Program-made: the position numbers and the translations under genes
NCBI GenBank assembly: GCA_018371855.1
Contig: JAHAKD010000005.1
Span: 84,928-148,927, forward strand
Source of the DNA: Clostridium sp.
GTDB taxonomy: Bacteria; Bacillota; Clostridia; TANB77; CAG-508
Length of the DNA: 64,000 nucleotides
Reading direction: 5' to 3'
The notes under the pieces: model-generated
The model's database searches: none
What the model saw: the letters and a program-made list of their open reading frames with translations, nothing else
What the model was told of the DNA's origin: nothing
Shown: piece by piece, positions 1,701-43,556 of the stretch
Numbering within the stretch: position 1 is the first letter of the stretch
Layout: every line of letters begins with the position of its first letter

Positions 1701-1740
1701 CAAATAGGGATTTAGGGGACGTTCCTAAAATCCCTATTTG
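1701..1740. repeat. interspersed nested-palindromic repeat, copy A (CAAATAGGGATTTAGGGGACGTTCCTAAAATCCCTATTTG)
   Basis: Outer ~16-bp inverted repeat around the central near-palindrome GGACGTTCC. Related copies at 32131, 43411, 57785 and 57841; partial copy at 13082. Confidence 0.7.
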
Positions 1741-1741
1741 A

Positions 1742-1773
1742 TACTTGGAAAGTTATGTAAATTGTGCTATAAT
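1742..1773 (+). promoter_or_regulatory. promoter ATACTTGGAAAGTTATGTAAATTGTGCTATAAT (extended -10)
   Basis: TTGGAA-17-TATAAT with a TGn extension. The first 19 nt are nearly identical to the promoter at 2226. Confidence 0.5.
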
Positions 1774-3381: not shown

Positions 3382-4023
3382 GTGAAAAAAGATAAAAGTG
3401 ATTTAAATAAAAGAGAGGTAGCAATCTTAAACTTTATATCAAAACAAATAAAAGCAAACCAATATCCACCATCAGTAAGAGAAATTTGTAAAGCTGTAGG
3501 ACTAAATTCAACAGCAACAGTACATGGATATTTAGAAAAATTAGAGCAAAAAGGTTACATAAGAAAAGAATCTCAAAAAGGAAGAGCATTAAGAGTTGTT
3601 AATGAAGATGATGTTATAAGAAAGCCAAAAGATGTTTATGCTGGTAAAGAATTAGTAGATGTACCAGTAGTAGGAAAAATAACTGCAGGCGCACCAATTT
3701 TAGCAGTAGAAAATATAACAGATACTTTTCCAATTCCTTTAGACTTTGTAGGAAATTCAGAAAGCTTTATGCTAACTGTTAGAGGAGAAAGTATGATAGA
3801 AGCAGGTATTTTAGATGGTGACTACATATTAGTAAAACAACAAAATACTGCAGAAAATGGTGAAATCGTTGTAGCTTTAATAGATGACGAAGCAACAGTA
3901 AAAACATTCTACAAAGAAAAAGATTATATAAGATTACAGCCAGAAAATCGCACAATGGCTCCAATAATTGTTCCAGATTGTAAAATACTTGGTAAAGTAG
4001 CTGGCGTATTTAGAAAAATGTAG
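3382..4023 (+). CDS. lexA: LexA repressor (GTG start)
   Basis: N-terminal winged helix and C-terminal S24 peptidase motifs (AG cleavage site in [11 protein letters not shown] in RGESM, K in ...TVKTF). Confidence 0.92.
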
Positions 4024-12330: not shown

Positions 12331-13083
12331 ATGAAAGCTTTAGTTACAGGTGCATCATCAGGAATAGGAGAGGAAATAGCTAAAGAATTAGCAAAAAGAG
12401 GATATGATATAATTCTTGTAGCTAGAAATGAAGAAAAATTAAAAGATGTTGCCTCAAAGATAAAAACCAATACCAGAATAATAACTATGGATTTATCTAA
12501 TAAAGAAAATTGTGAAGAGTTATATGAAGAAACAAAGAATGAAGATATAGATATCTTAATAAATAATGCAGGTTTTGGTGTTCACGGAAAATTTTGTGAT
12601 ACAGATTTAAATAAAGAAGTGCAAATGATAGAAACAAATATAACTGCAGTTCATATTTTAATGAAATTATTTTTAAAAGATATGATAAAGAAAAATAGTG
12701 GATATATTTTGAATGTTGCTTCTATGGCAGCATTTGGCCCAGGCCCATTAATGAGTGCATATTATGCTTCAAAAGCTTATGTATATAGATTGTCACAGGG
12801 GGTAAAAACAGAATTAAAAAAGAATAATTCAAAGGTTAAAATTTCGGTATTATGCCCAGGACCCGTAAGGACAAATTTTAATAAAGTAGCAGGAGTAGAT
12901 TTTGCAGCACCATCAATAAGTAGTGAATATGTTGCTAAATATGCAGTAAAGAAAATGCTAAAAAATAAATTTACAATAGTTCCTGGTACTTTTATGAAAA
13001 TAACTAGATTTTTCGAGAAAATAACTCCACATAATTTAGTAAGCAATGTTTCATATTTTGTAAATTACCGTAAAGATAAATGA
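12331..13083 (+). CDS. SDR-family short-chain dehydrogenase/reductase
   Basis: TGASSGIG Rossmann motif, NNAG, and YxxxK (YASKAY). RBS AGGAGG. Confidence 0.8.
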   Translation: MKALVTGASSGIGEEIAKELAKRGYDIILVARNEEKLKDVASKIKTNTRIITMDLSNKENCEELYEETKNEDIDILINNAGFGVHGKFCDTDLNKEVQMIETNITAVHILMKLFLKDMIKKNSGYILNVASMAAFGPGPLMSAYYASKAYVYRLSQGVKTELKKNNSKVKISVLCPGPVRTNFNKVAGVDFAAPSISSEYVAKYAVKKMLKNKFTIVPGTFMKITRFFEKITPHNLVSNVSYFVNYRKDK

Positions 13084-13110
13084 ACTTTAGGGACGGGGGA
13101 AAAGTTCAAA
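13082..13110. repeat. partial/degenerate copy of the GGGACG-core palindromic repeat (GAACTTTAGGGACGGGGGAAAAGTTC)
   Basis: 7-bp inverted repeat flanking a TTTAGGGACG core immediately after the SDR stop codon. Confidence 0.3.
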
Positions 13111-15739: not shown

Positions 15740-15740
15740 A

Positions 15741-15781
15741 AAACATGGAAGTAGATGTTTCTTTCTACTTCCATGTTTTTG
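15741..15781. terminator. bidirectional intrinsic terminator (AAAACATGGAAGTAGA-n-TCTACTTCCATGTTTTT)
   Basis: Perfect 15-bp stem flanked by an A-run and a T-run. Confidence 0.65.
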
Positions 15782-15944
15782 TGTGTATGTTATTGTCCAA
15801 TTTCCGGATGCTTTTTTTGCAAATCTGCAAACATATCGTATTCTTTGTCTGCCTTTTTCATTATGGAAGAGGTTGTAAAATACCCCTCAAAAATGGTGAC
15901 AATAAGAATATAGAATATTTTAAGAAATGTCCTATTATATATGA

Positions 15945-17150
15945 TTAATATTTTACAATGTCATTATATGTTTCTATTGCATAACTATCTGTCATACCAG
16001 AAATATATGTAATAATAGCTTTTTGATAATCTTTAATATCATTCATGTTATATAAAATTTTGTTTTTCAAATGAGATCTATCTGTTTCTATGTTCCAATA
16101 ACAAGAAATCCACTTTATAAAAGTATCAATCACTTTAGGATAAAATGGTCTTTCAATGTTTAATTTCTCTAAAGTATTTATACCATCATAACATTCATTT
16201 AATGTATTAAATATTTCGTTAAGCACAAGACTAAAATATCTTTCTGAAGGTTTCATACATTTGTGTTTATAAATATATTTGTAATTAAATTGTTTTAATC
16301 TTTTTATTTTTTCAAATGTAGTTTCAGAAAATTTTAAGCCTTCTTCTAAAGAGGAATTAATACATAGATCAGCTATTAAATCACCTATAATATTAGTATT
16401 ATTTAAATTAGCACTTCTAGGTTGTTCTAATAAATCATATAATTCATTTAAATTACTATCTAGTATTCCCATAGAAATGGCATCTTCTATATCTCTACCT
16501 AAATATGAGATTTTATCAGAAATTTTAACAACGCAACCCTCCCAAGTATATGGGGAATATTGGTTAAGTTTAAAATAATCTTTTTCTAAATCGATAAATT
16601 CAGTTCTAGGTTTTAAAGAAATTTCATCAATTTCACCACAGTGAGATATAATACCATCTCTTACTGCATATGTTAAGTTTAGATTTTTTTCTTCGTTATT
16701 AACATTTGTTAGCAATTCTATATTATCAACAAAATTTAAACCATTTCTTTCATGCCAAAAAGATTCTAAACCATTTTCCATACAAATTTTATTTAAAATT
16801 TGTTCGCCTTTATGTCCAAAAGGGCTATGACCAATATCGTGTGATATAGAAATGGCTCTTGTTAAAGTGGTATTTAAACCTAATGCTTTTGCAATTGTAT
16901 AACTTGTTGCATCAACATTGTTTACATGTTCAATACGAGTACAAATATGATCATTTTTTGGTAAAAAGAATACCTGTGTTTTATGCTTTAATCTTCTATA
17001 AGCATTACAATATATGATTCTATCATAATCTCTTTCGAATTCAGAGCGTACATCATTTTCTTTTTTATATAGTTCATCTCTTCTTGAAATTAAATTATTC
17101 CAATTAGGGTTAGATGGGGTAGCAGCAACACTACTAAATTTTAAATCCAT
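15945..17150 (-). CDS. dgt: dGTP triphosphohydrolase-like HD-domain protein
   Basis: ISHDIGHSPFGHKGE HD motif and the dGTPase-family N-terminus (DYDRIIY...RRLKHKTQVF). Confidence 0.8.
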   Translation of the reverse strand: MDLKFSSVAATPSNPNWNNLISRRDELYKKENDVRSEFERDYDRIIYCNAYRRLKHKTQVFFLPKNDHICTRIEHVNNVDATSYTIAKALGLNTTLTRAISISHDIGHSPFGHKGEQILNKICMENGLESFWHERNGLNFVDNIELLTNVNNEEKNLNLTYAVRDGIISHCGEIDEISLKPRTEFIDLEKDYFKLNQYSPYTWEGCVVKISDKISYLGRDIEDAISMGILDSNLNELYDLLEQPRSANLNNTNIIGDLIADLCINSSLEEGLKFSETTFEKIKRLKQFNYKYIYKHKCMKPSERYFSLVLNEIFNTLNECYDGINTLEKLNIERPFYPKVIDTFIKWISCYWNIETDRSHLKNKILYNMNDIKDYQKAIITYISGMTDSYAIETYNDIVKY

Positions 17151-17305: not shown

Positions 17306-17411
17306 AAGCATAAACTTTGTAGATGGAGGTAAAAGTTCATAAATTAACATAAAAAATGAACTTTAAGTCCCATCAATAAAGTTCAAAAGTTCATATAAAG
17401 GAAGTGAAAAA

Positions 17412-17861
17412 ATGAGAATATCAGATTTAATAGAAGATTTTATAAAAGATATGTTAAAAACAGAAGACGAATTAGAAATACAAAGAAATGAACTTGCGGA
17501 ACATTTTAATTGTGTGCCTTCACAAATAAATTACGTAATATCCACGCGATTTAAACCATCACAAGGTTATTATGTAGAAAGTAGAAGAGGAGGTGGCGGT
17601 CACATAACAATAAAAAAAGTAAATATAACACAAAGTAATTATTTAATGCATATAATAACAAGCATTGGTGATACTTTAACTTCAAAAGAAGTAGATATTT
17701 TCATAAGTAATTTTTTATCAGACAATATTGTGACTAAAAAAGAGGCTAAACTTTTAAAAGTGGCAACAAGTGATAATGTACTTAATGTACCTATCGATAT
17801 TAAAGATAATTTACGAGCAAGAATATTTAAGAACATGTTAATAAATTTAGTAGAAGATTAA
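17412..17861 (+). CDS. ctsR: class III stress-gene repressor CtsR
   Basis: Conserved N-terminal MRISDLIEDFIKDML...QINYVISTRF and the glycine-rich RRGGGGHI loop. Confidence 0.92.
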   Translation: MRISDLIEDFIKDMLKTEDELEIQRNELAEHFNCVPSQINYVISTRFKPSQGYYVESRRGGGGHITIKKVNITQSNYLMHIITSIGDTLTSKEVDIFISNFLSDNIVTKKEAKLLKVATSDNVLNVPIDIKDNLRARIFKNMLINLVED

Positions 17862-25186: not shown

Positions 25187-25249
25187 TCGCAAATATATTT
25201 GCGATTATTTTTAACACTAAAAAAATTGGTAATGGAAAAAAGAACGTTC

Positions 25250-26242
25250 CTAAATCCCTATCAATTTTTCCACTATTTGTATTGCATTAGATGCAGCACC
25301 TTTTCTTATATTATCTGCAACTACCCAAAGGTTGACACCATTTTCAACACTAAAGTCTCTTCTAATTCTTCCAACAAAAACTTCGTCATGACCAGTGGCG
25401 TTAGTTGCTAATGGGTAAATTTCAGAAGATGGATCATCTTGAACAATTATTCCTTCAAAACTTTTTAATGTTTCTACTAATTCAGAAAGGTCAAATGTTT
25501 TTTCAAATTCAACATTTATAGATTCACTATGTGAATTTTCTACTGGAACCCTAACAGTGGTTGCAGTTATTTTTAAATCTGGTTTCTTTAAAATTTTTCT
25601 TGTTTCGTTTATCATTTTTATTTCTTCTTTAGTATAACCATTTTCTGTGAATACATCTATATGTGGTAAACAATTATTATATATTGGATATGGAAATTTT
25701 TCTAATTTGTTAATTCCTTTTCTACCATTTTCTAAATCATTTAATCCTTTTTGACCTGCACCAGAAACAGCTTGATATGTAGAATATACTATTCTTTTTA
25801 TTGTATATTTATTATCTAAAGCTTTTAATGGTAATACAGCTTGAATAGTAGAACAATTTGGATTTGCAATTATTCCATGATTATTTATAATTTCCTCTGG
25901 ATTAACTTCTGGTACAACTAATGGCACATCTTTATCCATTCTAAATGCACTACTGTTGTCTACTACAATACAACCTTTAGACGCTGCAATTGGAGCATAT
26001 TTTTTAGCTGTTTCACCACCAGCAGAAAATATTGCAAAATCAAAACCTTCGTCAAAAGAATGTTCATTTAATTCCTTTATAACGTATTCTTTATTCATAA
26101 AATTAACTTTTTTGCCAGCAGATTTACTTGAGGCAAACAAAACGTATTCACTAATTGGTAGTTTTTTCTCTTCTAATACTTTTAGTGCAGTTCTACCAAC
26201 TACACCTGTAGCACCTACAATTGCTAATTTGTAATTTTTCAT
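25250..26242 (-). CDS. asd: aspartate-semialdehyde dehydrogenase
   Basis: LAIVGATGVVG, active-site NPNCSTI, and AVSGAG. Confidence 0.9.
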   Translation of the reverse strand: MKNYKLAIVGATGVVGRTALKVLEEKKLPISEYVLFASSKSAGKKVNFMNKEYVIKELNEHSFDEGFDFAIFSAGGETAKKYAPIAASKGCIVVDNSSAFRMDKDVPLVVPEVNPEEIINNHGIIANPNCSTIQAVLPLKALDNKYTIKRIVYSTYQAVSGAGQKGLNDLENGRKGINKLEKFPYPIYNNCLPHIDVFTENGYTKEEIKMINETRKILKKPDLKITATTVRVPVENSHSESINVEFEKTFDLSELVETLKSFEGIIVQDDPSSEIYPLATNATGHDEVFVGRIRRDFSVENGVNLWVVADNIRKGAASNAIQIVEKLIGI

Positions 26243-42696: not shown

Positions 42697-43380
42697 ATGG
42701 AACGCAAAAAAACTAATATGAAAAATAAAATACTATATCTTCTAATAGCAATTATAATAATTGCAGGTATAGTTGTTGGGTGTACAGCAAAGTTTAAATT
42801 TAGTTTAGCATATGATGATTCTAATAGAATCGAAGTTTATATTGGTAAAGATTATACAAAATCTGATGTAGAGTCTATTGCTAAAGAAGTGTTTGGAACA
42901 AATGATGTATTAATACAAAAAATAGAATTCTTTAATGATTCTGTAGCAATTACAGTAAGAGAAAGTAATGATGAGCAATTAAATAGCTTAGTAACAAAAA
43001 TAAATGAAAAATATGAAACATCTTTAACAAAAGATGATTTAATTGTAGTAGAGATACCTCATTATAGAGGAAGAGACTTAATGGCAAATTATGTTTGGCC
43101 TATAGTAATTTCAGCAGCTCTAATTATTGTTTATGAAGCAATAAGATTTAGAAAATTAGGAGTAGTAAAAGTTGTAGCAAAATTAATAATTTGGCCAATA
43201 GTAATAGAAGCACTATATTTAAGTGTTTTAGCAATAACTAGAATACCTATTAGTTATTACACATTACCATTAGGAATTATATTAGCAGTATTAACATTAA
43301 CAGTTATAACATATAAAAACGAAAAGAAATTAGTAGAACACAATAGAAAGAAAAATAATGGTAAAGAAGAAAAAGATTAA
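42697..43380 (+). CDS. SecF-like membrane protein (short)
   Basis: N-terminal TM, ~100-aa periplasmic domain, then a 3-4 TM helix bundle (YVWPIVISAALIIVYEAIRFR...). Confidence 0.35.
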   Translation: MERKKTNMKNKILYLLIAIIIIAGIVVGCTAKFKFSLAYDDSNRIEVYIGKDYTKSDVESIAKEVFGTNDVLIQKIEFFNDSVAITVRESNDEQLNSLVTKINEKYETSLTKDDLIVVEIPHYRGRDLMANYVWPIVISAALIIVYEAIRFRKLGVVKVVAKLIIWPIVIEALYLSVLAITRIPISYYTLPLGIILAVLTLTVITYKNEKKLVEHNRKKNNGKEEKD

Positions 43381-43389
43381 AAAAATATA

Positions 43390-43447
43390 AACGGGATATG
43401 GAAAGCCCCTGGGGGATTTTGGGGACGTTCCTTAAATCCCCGTTTTT
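43390..43447 (+). terminator. palindromic repeat copy C functioning as an intrinsic terminator (GGGGGATTTTGGGGACGTTCCTTAAATCCCCGTTTTTT)
   Basis: Same GGACGTTCC core with an outer AAACGGG/CCCCGTTT stem, followed by a T-run. Confidence 0.6.
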
Positions 43448-43556
43448 TATACAAAAATATTAGAACAAAAAAACAGGATGTATATCCTGTTTTTTTACAT
43501 TTATTAGGTTATATCTCATCAAATAAAATCAAAAATTTAGAAGTAAGATTAATATA

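Follow-up and report, generated by a model that had tools for sequence, protein, structure and literature searches.

A REP/REPIN-like family of intergenic hairpin repeats and its probable RAYT partner in uncultured AT-rich gut Clostridia

To characterise a short palindromic intergenic repeat with GGGATTT arms, we analysed 64,000 nucleotides of the Clostridium sp. contig JAHAKD010000005.1 (positions 84,928 to 148,927 of the forward strand), referred to here as the window. These repeats very probably form a family of the kind known as repetitive extragenic palindromes (REPs) and their inverted doublets (REPINs), recognised as hairpin DNA by a REP-associated tyrosine transposase (RAYT), in a lineage of uncultured AT-rich gut Clostridia. 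They are elements of a known kind, in a host that has been little studied, and not a regulator site. The family, its distribution, its hairpin with covariation in the stem and its association with a RAYT gene in relatives were established in this work. A preliminary description of the window had left the choice between a REP-like element, or bacterial interspersed mosaic element (BIME), and the site of a dimeric regulator. The former is borne out, the repeats being numerous, dispersed and extragenic throughout the clade, with inverted copies flanking a RAYT-type Y1 gene in relatives; the latter was abandoned, as the copies lie mostly at 3′ ends or in short co-directional gaps and the stem varies with the loop conserved.

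Four strong copies and one degenerate copy in the window have the arms and core GGGATTT-GGGGACGTTCC-TTAAATCCC in common and are termed family 1; they are numbered copies 1 to 5 from their starts at 1701, 32131, 43411, 57785 and 57841. When the 64 kb were searched with a profile built from 139 copies, four strong and two weak copies were obtained, and the strong hits at 1706-1737, 32133-32164, 43413-43441 and 57840-57870 (minus strand) had E-values of 3e-10 to 7e-10, the weak ones at 57787-57816 and 25242-25260 having 0.025 and 0.2. Four copies lie where they had previously been placed, at 1701-1740, 32131-32164 and 43411-43442 on the plus strand and 57841-57883 on the minus strand. The forward copy formerly given as 57785-57806 is also real, but its limits are better drawn at 57785-57817 and it is degenerate (E = 0.025). 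On the other hand, the element at 13082-13110, once counted as a degenerate member, reached only E = 16 (at 13086-13095) and belongs to a second family with GAACTTT/AAAGTTC arms, and the previous list lacked the right-half relic AGAACGTTCCTAAATCCCTAT at 25241-25261 (plus strand; E = 0.2-0.4), which is placed between the convergent genes of an iron-dependent repressor and aspartate-semialdehyde dehydrogenase. Repeat finding grouped the four forward copies as one family (D2) and paired the fifth, inverted copy with copy 2 (I15). Furthermore, GGACGTTCC occurs exactly three times in the window, whose G+C content is 27%, and CCTAAAATCCC with at most one mismatch occurs eight times versus 1.06 expected, a count reached by none of 100 shuffles. 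The nearly palindromic centre GGAACGTTCC noted earlier is present, but it is lineage-specific, and the wider class keeps a GGGGAC(G/A) loop instead.

The distribution of the repeat was determined by a scan of public genomes, one genome per GTDB species, with the 19-mer core GGGACGTTSCTWAAATCCC. At least 109 stretches carrying this core were found, and among the matches listed nearly all were in about 24 species-level metagenome-assembled genomes (MAGs) of uncultured Clostridia, with titles such as Clostridium sp. CAG:354, UMGS1570, HGM13682, BRZ_CR_bin60 and similar. Several of these MAGs are 86-96% identical to the window in nucleotide sequence, and proteins of the window were found on gut-metagenome contigs of ENA, the species being present in many gut samples (213 index blocks). 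MAG UMGS1570 had no fewer than 26 exact 16-mers in a sample of 182 kb, and a copy number of about 100 per ~1.7-Mb genome was estimated by extrapolation from the density in the window and the largest contig seen. The scan of viral contigs for the core gave no match. The literature search returned nothing for the repeat sequence, and the papers on "CAG-354" are silent on repeats.

It is clear from their positions that the copies are extragenic, since only 6 of 145 lie inside open reading frames (ORFs) and 139 outside. The motif is not confined to a few sites, the outcome that the preliminary description had named as a refutation. Of the extragenic copies, 79 stand between co-directional genes (54 in the orientation of the genes and 25 opposite), 29 between convergent genes and 14 between divergent genes, and 17 are too near a locus end to be classified. 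They are frequently placed 0-60 nt past a stop codon or occupy gaps of 30-100 nt between co-directional genes, and in some cases the stop codon itself is supplied by a repeat; the window has two such cases (TGA at 13081, TAG at 53270) and L107 another (TAG). Orientation relative to GC skew (90:53) adds nothing beyond gene orientation, so that replication and transcription biases are inseparable. Singlets, inverted doublets and clusters all occur across the clade.

Several MAG contigs, including L033, L038, L079 and L088, end within or beside a repeat copy, so the repeats probably break short-read assemblies; most composite copies were seen in the most fragmented MAG, ERR9465714_bin.18. Two exact cores were also present in a much more G+C-rich organism, MAG Lapin-001 bin57 (L009 7180-7198 and L061 4489-4507). 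Both are set in ATCGAC-GGGACGTTCCTNAAATCCC-A amid other repeated non-coding sequence, and this repeat may be unrelated or convergent.

The consensus of family 1 is nnGGGATTTGGGGACGTTCCTTAAATCCCTATTTT, folding into a stem of 10-13 bp with a conserved internal asymmetry. The left arm is variable, with GGGATTTG, GGGATTTA, GGGATTAG, GGGAAATA and other forms, and the bases 5′ of GGGATTT are mostly TA or TC, GTAG being only occasional. In a registered flank analysis, the base 5′ of GGGA covaried with the base 3′ of CCC as an extra pair (A-T 102, C-G 30; both counts are roughly doubled by duplicate records). This analysis, together with the comparison across lineages, replaced an ungapped covariation count over the 139 copies that had been weak, the right arm being fixed by the search pattern and the left arm lying out of register in some rows.

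The partner search, which covered ORFs bracketed by repeat copies, revealed a 262-aa ORF at 270-1058 of L048 (261 aa from the ATG at 273), with one copy 150 nt upstream on the plus strand and another 11 nt downstream on the minus strand. Its protein matched Pfam Y1_Tnp (E = 4.6e-10), and its best NCBIfam model was "REP-associated tyrosine transposase" (REP_Tyr_transpos) with 66.7 bits, the IS200 model giving 17.4 bits. At E ≤ 1e-5 there were 561 homologues, mostly of ~256 aa, one of them named RayT by JGI. The HUH motif (NHAH) and the tyrosine motif YIHxNPVKAG are invariant in 33 homologues that are 36-61% identical to the L048 protein. A C-terminal ...ILGIGKNRI... segment is also conserved and gave weak matches to HTH_24, Sigma70_r4 and HTH_19, and the C-terminal domain is helical in the AlphaFold model (pLDDT 82.4). 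The best profile hit in the PDB was 4ER8, the E. coli TnpA-REP; the same structure (4ER8_A) was the top Foldseek match of the AlphaFold model, with E = 3.7e-7 and a TM score of 0.72, and the IS608 and ISDra2 TnpA structures followed at about 3e-4, roughly a thousand-fold worse. Profile and fold searches were needed, as phmmer of a single RAYT against PDB sequences gave no match. An early tblastn search with three Y1 transposase sequences had likewise given nothing significant; its best hit, with E = 0.08 in L048, was later seen to be the RAYT. The dN/dS ratio was 0.25 for the single informative pair. Judged from sequence, the RAYT appears to be a single-copy gene whose product is predicted to be catalytically intact.

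The RAYT gene was further found at one syntenic locus, PSP1-ferredoxin-RAYT-POR (POR standing for oxoacid:ferredoxin oxidoreductase genes), in seven variants, namely L048, which opens with a ferredoxin C-terminus matching this locus, and the six homologues P0006, P0004, P0012, P0013, P0029 and P0032, whose proteins share 45-61% identity with that of L048. Family 1 copies or arrays, inverted with respect to each other, bracket the gene in L048, L112/L115/L116, L117/L118, L121 and L122, and with P0013 (L119) the repeats lie farther from it. A protein of the same 90%-identity cluster as P0006 was found on a contig of 1.72 Mb. No tnpB was found among the RAYT neighbours at the syntenic locus, and one RAYT match occurred among the 109 pattern-fetched loci listed. 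In L115 (1-2760), as compared with L112, the genes holB, PSP1 and ferredoxin upstream of RAYT are replaced by phage lysis genes (holin, GH25 lysin); synteny breaks ~45 nt before the left REP, so that a rearrangement or prophage boundary adjoins the repeat.

A metagenome survey with an alignment of RAYT proteins returned 80 loci, and inverted repeats surrounded the gene in about 40 of the 50 with usable flanks. A hairpin whose loop starts with (G)GGGAC(G/A) was present in 28 of 31 RAYT-flanking repeats examined, which came from diverse lineages, and these hairpins had 25 distinct, lineage-specific inner stems. That the loop is kept and the stems vary is the strongest evidence that the hairpin, and not the duplex sequence, is the conserved object; as pairing is kept while stems vary, the data speak for a folded single strand rather than a code of duplex half-sites. 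We put forward tentatively, as something quite possible, that the long RAYT class with a helix-turn-helix (HTH), similar to TIRYTs or subclass 2.1, has canonical hairpin REPs in which a GGGGAC(G/A) loop sits on a freely varying stem, with ~100 copies per ~1.7-Mb genome here, two families coexisting in the window and tandem half-unit arrays. If this were true, it would provide a testable recognition code for the RAYT class and a Firmicutes model of the REP-RAYT relationship.

In the mechanism we favour, the trans-acting partner would be this apparently single-copy RAYT, a Y1 HUH tyrosine transposase of the TnpA-REP type of ~256 aa with a C-terminal HTH-like extension. By analogy with E. coli TnpA-REP and the TnpA proteins of IS200/IS605, IS608 and ISDra2, it would recognise the repeat as a hairpin of single-stranded DNA (ssDNA), with its shape set by the lineage-specific stem and its sequence contacts made through the conserved GGGGAC(G) loop. 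Cleavage and rejoining by the enzyme next to the hairpin would slowly seed new copies without target-site duplications; it is from the same analogy that we infer RAYT-dependent mobilisation of the repeats. The tandem ~21-nt half-units and the 8-nt runs that accompany many copies would expand and contract, probably via slippage or recombination between direct repeats.

The RNA folds of the window copies range from -14 to -24 kcal/mol, with z-scores of -4 to -6 for copies 1, 2 and 5, and the ssDNA folds have z-scores of -2.8 to -5.7. Copy 1 is at the stable end in both forms (RNA -24 kcal/mol, z -6.1; ssDNA -12.9 kcal/mol, z -5.7), the RNA fold of copy 3 has -16.7 kcal/mol and a z-score of only -1.4, and the degenerate copy 4 has no fold on its own. 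The whole copZ-copA spacer, which holds copies 4 and 5, forms one long hairpin of -34.5 kcal/mol (z -4.5), which lies 25 nt ahead of the copA start. In 34% of copies, a run of four or more T was found within 12 nt downstream, versus 14% of random 12-mers. The preliminary description took one copy to double as an intrinsic terminator, and this is plausible, from its sequence, for copy 3, a hairpin followed by T6, but a simple terminator scan did not flag it; the other window copies have no adjacent T-run. Transcribed copies are predicted to form stable RNA stem-loops. About a third of the hairpins, those with a downstream T-run and copy 3 included, could terminate transcription, and the remaining hairpins could serve as 3′-exonuclease barriers or inter-gene structures, as in the copZ-copA doublet; such effects at the RNA level would be incidental or secondary. 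With Rfam, no match at gathering threshold was obtained at the repeat sites, the window scan giving two T-boxes and one tRNA only, and an E-value scan of eight loci yielded only sub-threshold matches to miRNA precursors, which were rejected as generic long hairpins.

Could selection at the RNA level alone have spread a family of intrinsic terminators or stabilisers of 3′ untranslated regions (UTRs), or kept its members similar, with no mobilising enzyme? The excess of downstream T-runs (34% versus 14%), the 2:1 orientation along transcription, the G-U pairs that stabilise the transcribed orientation (-24 versus -19 kcal/mol) and the terminator-like copy 3 speak for this. However, two thirds of the copies have no T-run, a third of those between co-directional genes are antisense and 14 lie in divergent promoter regions. 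Nor does independent origin explain an identical 19-mer at more than 100 places, or the existence of inverted doublets and palindromic composites of 110-360 bp. The repeats moreover flank RAYT, and a terminator function fits more easily as something REPs acquired secondarily than as their rival origin, which we regard as improbable. A regulatory origin, in which a dimeric regulator or nucleoid-associated protein reads the duplex palindrome as its operator, would fit the palindromic architecture and the closeness of two window copies to promoter or regulatory sequence (one upstream of the T-box leader promoter, the other in the csoR-copZ-copA operon). It is the least credible of the explanations weighed here and has next to no probability in our view, since most copies are past stops, in convergent gaps or in co-directional gaps of 30-100 nt, at no fixed distance from a start codon, and number an estimated ~100 per 1.7-Mb genome by extrapolation; their stems differ freely among lineages with the pairing kept, and copies flank the RAYT gene.

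The repeats might also be solo ends, or derivatives of the miniature inverted-repeat (MITE) or palindrome-associated (PATE) kind, of an active multicopy insertion sequence (IS), either a DDE transposon with terminal inverted repeats or a member of IS200/IS605. The associated protein indeed has an IS200-like Y1 fold, and in more distant MAGs, palindromic elements of 116-361 bp with a conserved interior terminate in inverted copies of the unit. Yet no target-site duplications were seen for 10 doublet elements, ORF clustering over ~870 kb around copies gave no recurrent transposase family, and the Y1 gene occurred once among the pattern-fetched loci listed. The persistence of one syntenic chromosomal locus across proteins down to 45% identity is the behaviour of a domesticated RAYT, tnpB is missing, and the RAYT model and 4ER8 outrank IS200 and IS608. 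We therefore hold this origin to be very unlikely: as to the earlier concern that the motif might be an IS terminal repeat, it is not the end of a multicopy IS, yet it flanks a transposase gene of domesticated type. The top ORF clusters around the copies were copA-like P-type ATPases and ABC transporter-like proteins, the latter judged by size. A number of other candidates did not fit and were set aside. Among protein-binding sites these were CsoR/CopY operators, CtsR or CIRCE boxes, Noc/parS/dif-type sites and a sigma-54 promoter central to the 330-bp elements; the others were integron attC sites, DNA uptake sequences, Tn7-like end repeats, CsrA-binding GGA hairpins and G-quadruplexes.

Several observations weigh against the interpretation as REPs recognised by a RAYT. 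The window itself has no RAYT gene, and the evidence for the link comes from sister lineages, which are 86-96% identical to the window in nucleotide sequence, and from more distant ones. In one of the more distant REP-bearing lineages (L090 1-2793, a CANRXN MAG), a REP lies between PSP1 and ferredoxin with no RAYT within 2.8 kb after ferredoxin, so that not every such lineage has RAYT at the syntenic site. The 66.7 bits of the L048 protein are below the 80-bit equivalog cut-off of the NCBIfam RAYT model. The repeats have no 5′ GTAG tag of the kind classical for proteobacterial REPs, and singlets rather than REPIN doublets make up most of the copies in the window's clade. The apparently exact conservation of the core, moreover, is in part due to the pattern with which the copies were searched for. 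Finally, among close relatives we failed to obtain a clean filled-versus-empty insertion with exact boundaries, the differences found involving replaced sequence; a search of metagenomes for an empty allele of copy 1 gave 0 matches, which is uninterpretable without a control search for the filled allele.

The closest known system is that of the E. coli REP/BIME elements and TnpA-REP, which likewise comprises imperfect palindromes of ~35-40 nt, extragenic, often transcribed, located at 3′ ends and within operons, and found as single, inverted-pair and clustered copies, with a Y1 HUH partner that is flanked by inverted repeats (single-copy there and apparently so here); its structure 4ER8 is the best structural match of the RAYT model described here. 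Unlike the E. coli REPs, the present repeats have no 5′ GTAG tag and conserve the GGGGAC(G) loop instead, with stems varying by lineage. The protein is ~100 aa longer than TnpA-REP, with a C-terminal HTH-like region, and the host lineage is AT-rich Clostridia. Tandem direct arrays of ~21-nt half-units precede many hairpins here, and such arrays are not described for proteobacterial REPs.

RAYTs were reported to be single-copy, vertically inherited and flanked by highly repeated 16-mers, with Group 1 RAYTs, including those of Clostridia, only weakly associated with repeats (~12 occurrences of the flanking 16-mer) (Bertels et al., 2017; PMC5581495). The Pseudomonas fluorescens SBW25 REPINs and RAYT groups 2 and 3 resemble the system described here in that inverted doublets form long hairpins and highly repeated 16-mers stand in the extragenic DNA beside a RAYT that is single-copy and vertically inherited, as the one here appears to be. 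Turnover of the SBW25 REPINs is similarly slow, orthologous copies persisting between sister species. Unlike in SBW25, singlets prevail in the window's clade, and doublets of 116-152 bp dominate only in distant MAGs. In TIRtrons, the RAYT-like proteins (TIRYTs) are long and carry an HTH at the C-terminus. The motif GGGGWSAS is common to the inverted repeats on their flanks, which are at times self-complementary and at times make up dispersed families of moderate abundance, arranged as dimers or clusters (Di Nocera et al., 2013; PMC3733652). Subclass 2.1, the equivalent of Group 1, was described as long with a C-terminal HTH and no REP-like neighbours, and was equated with TIRYTs (Quentin et al., 2018; PMC6006769). 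The variant units GGGGACAC and GGGGACAG fit GGGGWSAS exactly, but the main core GGGGACGT matches 6 of its 8 positions, and unlike for subclass 2.1 the repeats here are true hairpins and abundantly dispersed. Compared by description, the system resembles the TIRYT/subclass 2.1 type in outline.

Other mobile systems are more remote. IS200/IS605 elements (IS608, ISDra2) and PATEs also combine a Y1 HUH fold with recognition of a subterminal ssDNA hairpin and no target-site duplications, whereas the gene here is syntenic, apparently single-copy and without tnpB, the IS200 model gives only 17 bits, and the repeats far outnumber the gene. BOX and RUP of Streptococcus pneumoniae and Correia of Neisseria are small, modular, dispersed intergenic repeats of small genomes that form stable RNA structures and affect the expression of neighbours; the internal tandem modules of BOX vary in number. 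These elements are taken to rely on transposases of DDE-type IS or on unknown enzymes and are not known to rely on a flanked RAYT, and their sequences are unrelated to the repeats described here.

To our knowledge, REP/RAYT systems have been characterised almost entirely in Proteobacteria; such a system is now seen in small AT-rich genomes of uncultured gut Clostridia, with an enzyme resembling a class reported to be without REPs. A conserved loop on a variable stem suggests how enzyme and repeat co-evolve. Neighbouring genes draw stop codons, and possibly ribosome-binding sites, from the repeats, and both the strong hairpins between co-directional genes such as copZ-copA and the fragmentation of MAGs are relevant to annotation and expression studies in these organisms. 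The host role of RAYTs is an open question (PMC5581495).

One to four tandem units of ~21 nt, degenerate forms of GGGATTTGGGGACGTTCCTTC, or runs of 8-mers resembling GGGAAATA stand ahead of many copies, and the window holds relics of both array types, at 43393-43410 (tandem unit) and 57758-57790 (8-mers). Runs of GGGAAATA like that at 57758-57790 occur in L103, L098 and L085 and replace the left arm of some REPs. Comparison of orthologous sites revealed changes in unit number: the A/G-rich run at 57758-57790 differs in length by 22-51 nt from L006 and L016, the orthologues of the ileS copy 2 in the sister species L064 and L071 each have one extra upstream unit of ~24 nt, and copy 3, with orthologues in L014, L029 and L093, is accompanied by a further 20-nt unit in L029. 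Relative to sister species, the copZ-copA doublet of the window has lost 49 nt between two direct units. The window sequence at 15740-15945 is unrelated to that of L019, which carries an inverted pair at this place, and between ybaB and recR an insertion of ~70 nt is present in L074 and L107, with a 12-nt gap in L059.

Inverted doublets were found at copZ-copA, in L019 and in L052, and doublets of 116-152 bp in distant MAGs. In the latter genomes, palindromic elements of two sizes, 116-152 bp and 316-361 bp, have the composite unit GGGATTAGGGGACGTTCCTTAAATCCC...GGGGATTAGGGGACACTCCTTA as their inverted ends, and no direct repeats indicative of target-site duplications surrounded any of 10 doublet elements. 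The larger elements bounded by inverted REP composite units (~316-361 bp; L100 5480-5795, L017 976-1309 and L101 379-739) have a conserved interior with an asymmetric centre, TGGCACCCTTYCA...GAACRYTTTCC, which is common to different MAG species and has no Rfam match.

The settings of the window copies are as follows. Copy 1 (1701-1740, plus strand; E = 2.6e-10) is the most perfect palindrome, CAAATAGGGATTT-AGGGGACGTTCCTA-AAATCCCTATTTG, and lies in a divergent intergenic region with a T-box leader promoter on one side and a promoter-like site at 1745-1773 (plus) on the other; its location upstream of a T-box leader ahead of a DUF1653 gene and an ORF resembling seryl-tRNA synthetase (SerRS) agrees with the preliminary description. 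So does the position of copy 2 (32131-32164, plus), which begins 2 nt past the ileS stop codon (32128). As it stands between this stop and a separate, bidirectional-looking terminator hairpin at ~32172-32205, copy 2 is probably transcribed within the ileS 3′ UTR. Copy 3 (43411-43442, plus), with T6 directly 3′, is located 31 nt past the stop of ORF 42697-43380, and a second, conventional bidirectional terminator follows at 43467-43496; the name "SecF-like" once given to this ORF was not upheld, no Pfam match being obtained. Upstream of copy 3, the degenerate half-unit GGGATATGGAAAGCCCCT (43393-43410, plus) appears, from its alignment with L029 and the extra 20-nt unit there, to be a relic of the tandem ~21-nt units found in other genomes.

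The doublet in the copZ-copA spacer, a context already recognised, belongs to the csoR-copZ-copA operon. Directly past the copZ stop, A/G-rich short repeats of AGGAAAAT-like 8-mers (57758-57790, plus) run into the left arm of copy 4 (57785-57817, plus), in which AGGAAAAT repeats stand in place of that arm around the core GGAACGTTGTTAAAATCCC. This degenerate copy forms the left half of the inverted doublet and pairs with copy 5 (57841-57883, minus; E = 2.9e-10), the right half of the REPIN-like structure, which has a duplicated outer arm and ends 25 nt upstream of the copA start.

The second family coexists with family 1 in the window and has three copies there, of the pattern TGAACTTT-AGGGAYGG..-AAAGTTCA, with both arms exchanged from GGGATTT/AAATCCC to GAACTTT/AAAGTTC. 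The copy TGAACTTT-AGGGACGGGGGA-AAAGTTCA at 13081-13108 (plus; ssDNA z -4.6) is kept in L019 and opens with the TGA that serves as stop codon of the short-chain dehydrogenase/reductase (SDR) gene, so that the stop-codon context reported for SDR holds. A copy at 17357-17385 (minus) lies 27 nt upstream of an ORF starting at 17412, with extra AAAGTTCA half-sites nearby, and forms the inverted pair I9 with TTGAACTATAGGGATGGAGCTTAAAGTTCAA at 53262-53292 (plus), which includes the TAG stop (53270-53272) of ORF 52079-53272. Furthermore, the RAYT homologue P0079 (locus L123), 42% identical to the L048 protein, is bracketed by TGAACTTTAGGGACGGACCTTAAAAGTTCA, the family 2 repeat of the window, with repeats of this type at 1752-1770 and 2897-2915; its locus, between PMT_2 and queH, differs from that of the family 1 RAYT. 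A family 2-type repeat thus flanks its own RAYT homologue at another locus, which suggests two REP-RAYT pairs in the wider group.

On the left of copy 1, the T-box leader (1422-1627, minus) is followed by the DUF1653 gene (1067-1348) and then by the ORF with a SerRS-like N-terminus, a 355-aa fragment that runs off the window. On its right, the segment 1780-3300 has an atypical G+C content of up to 46%, versus 27% overall, and contains small ORFs (85, 117 and 192 aa) without Pfam matches, with lexA next at 3382-4023; this segment is probably a small acquired island. Near-duplicate promoter-like sequences were observed at 1745-1773 and 2228-2256.

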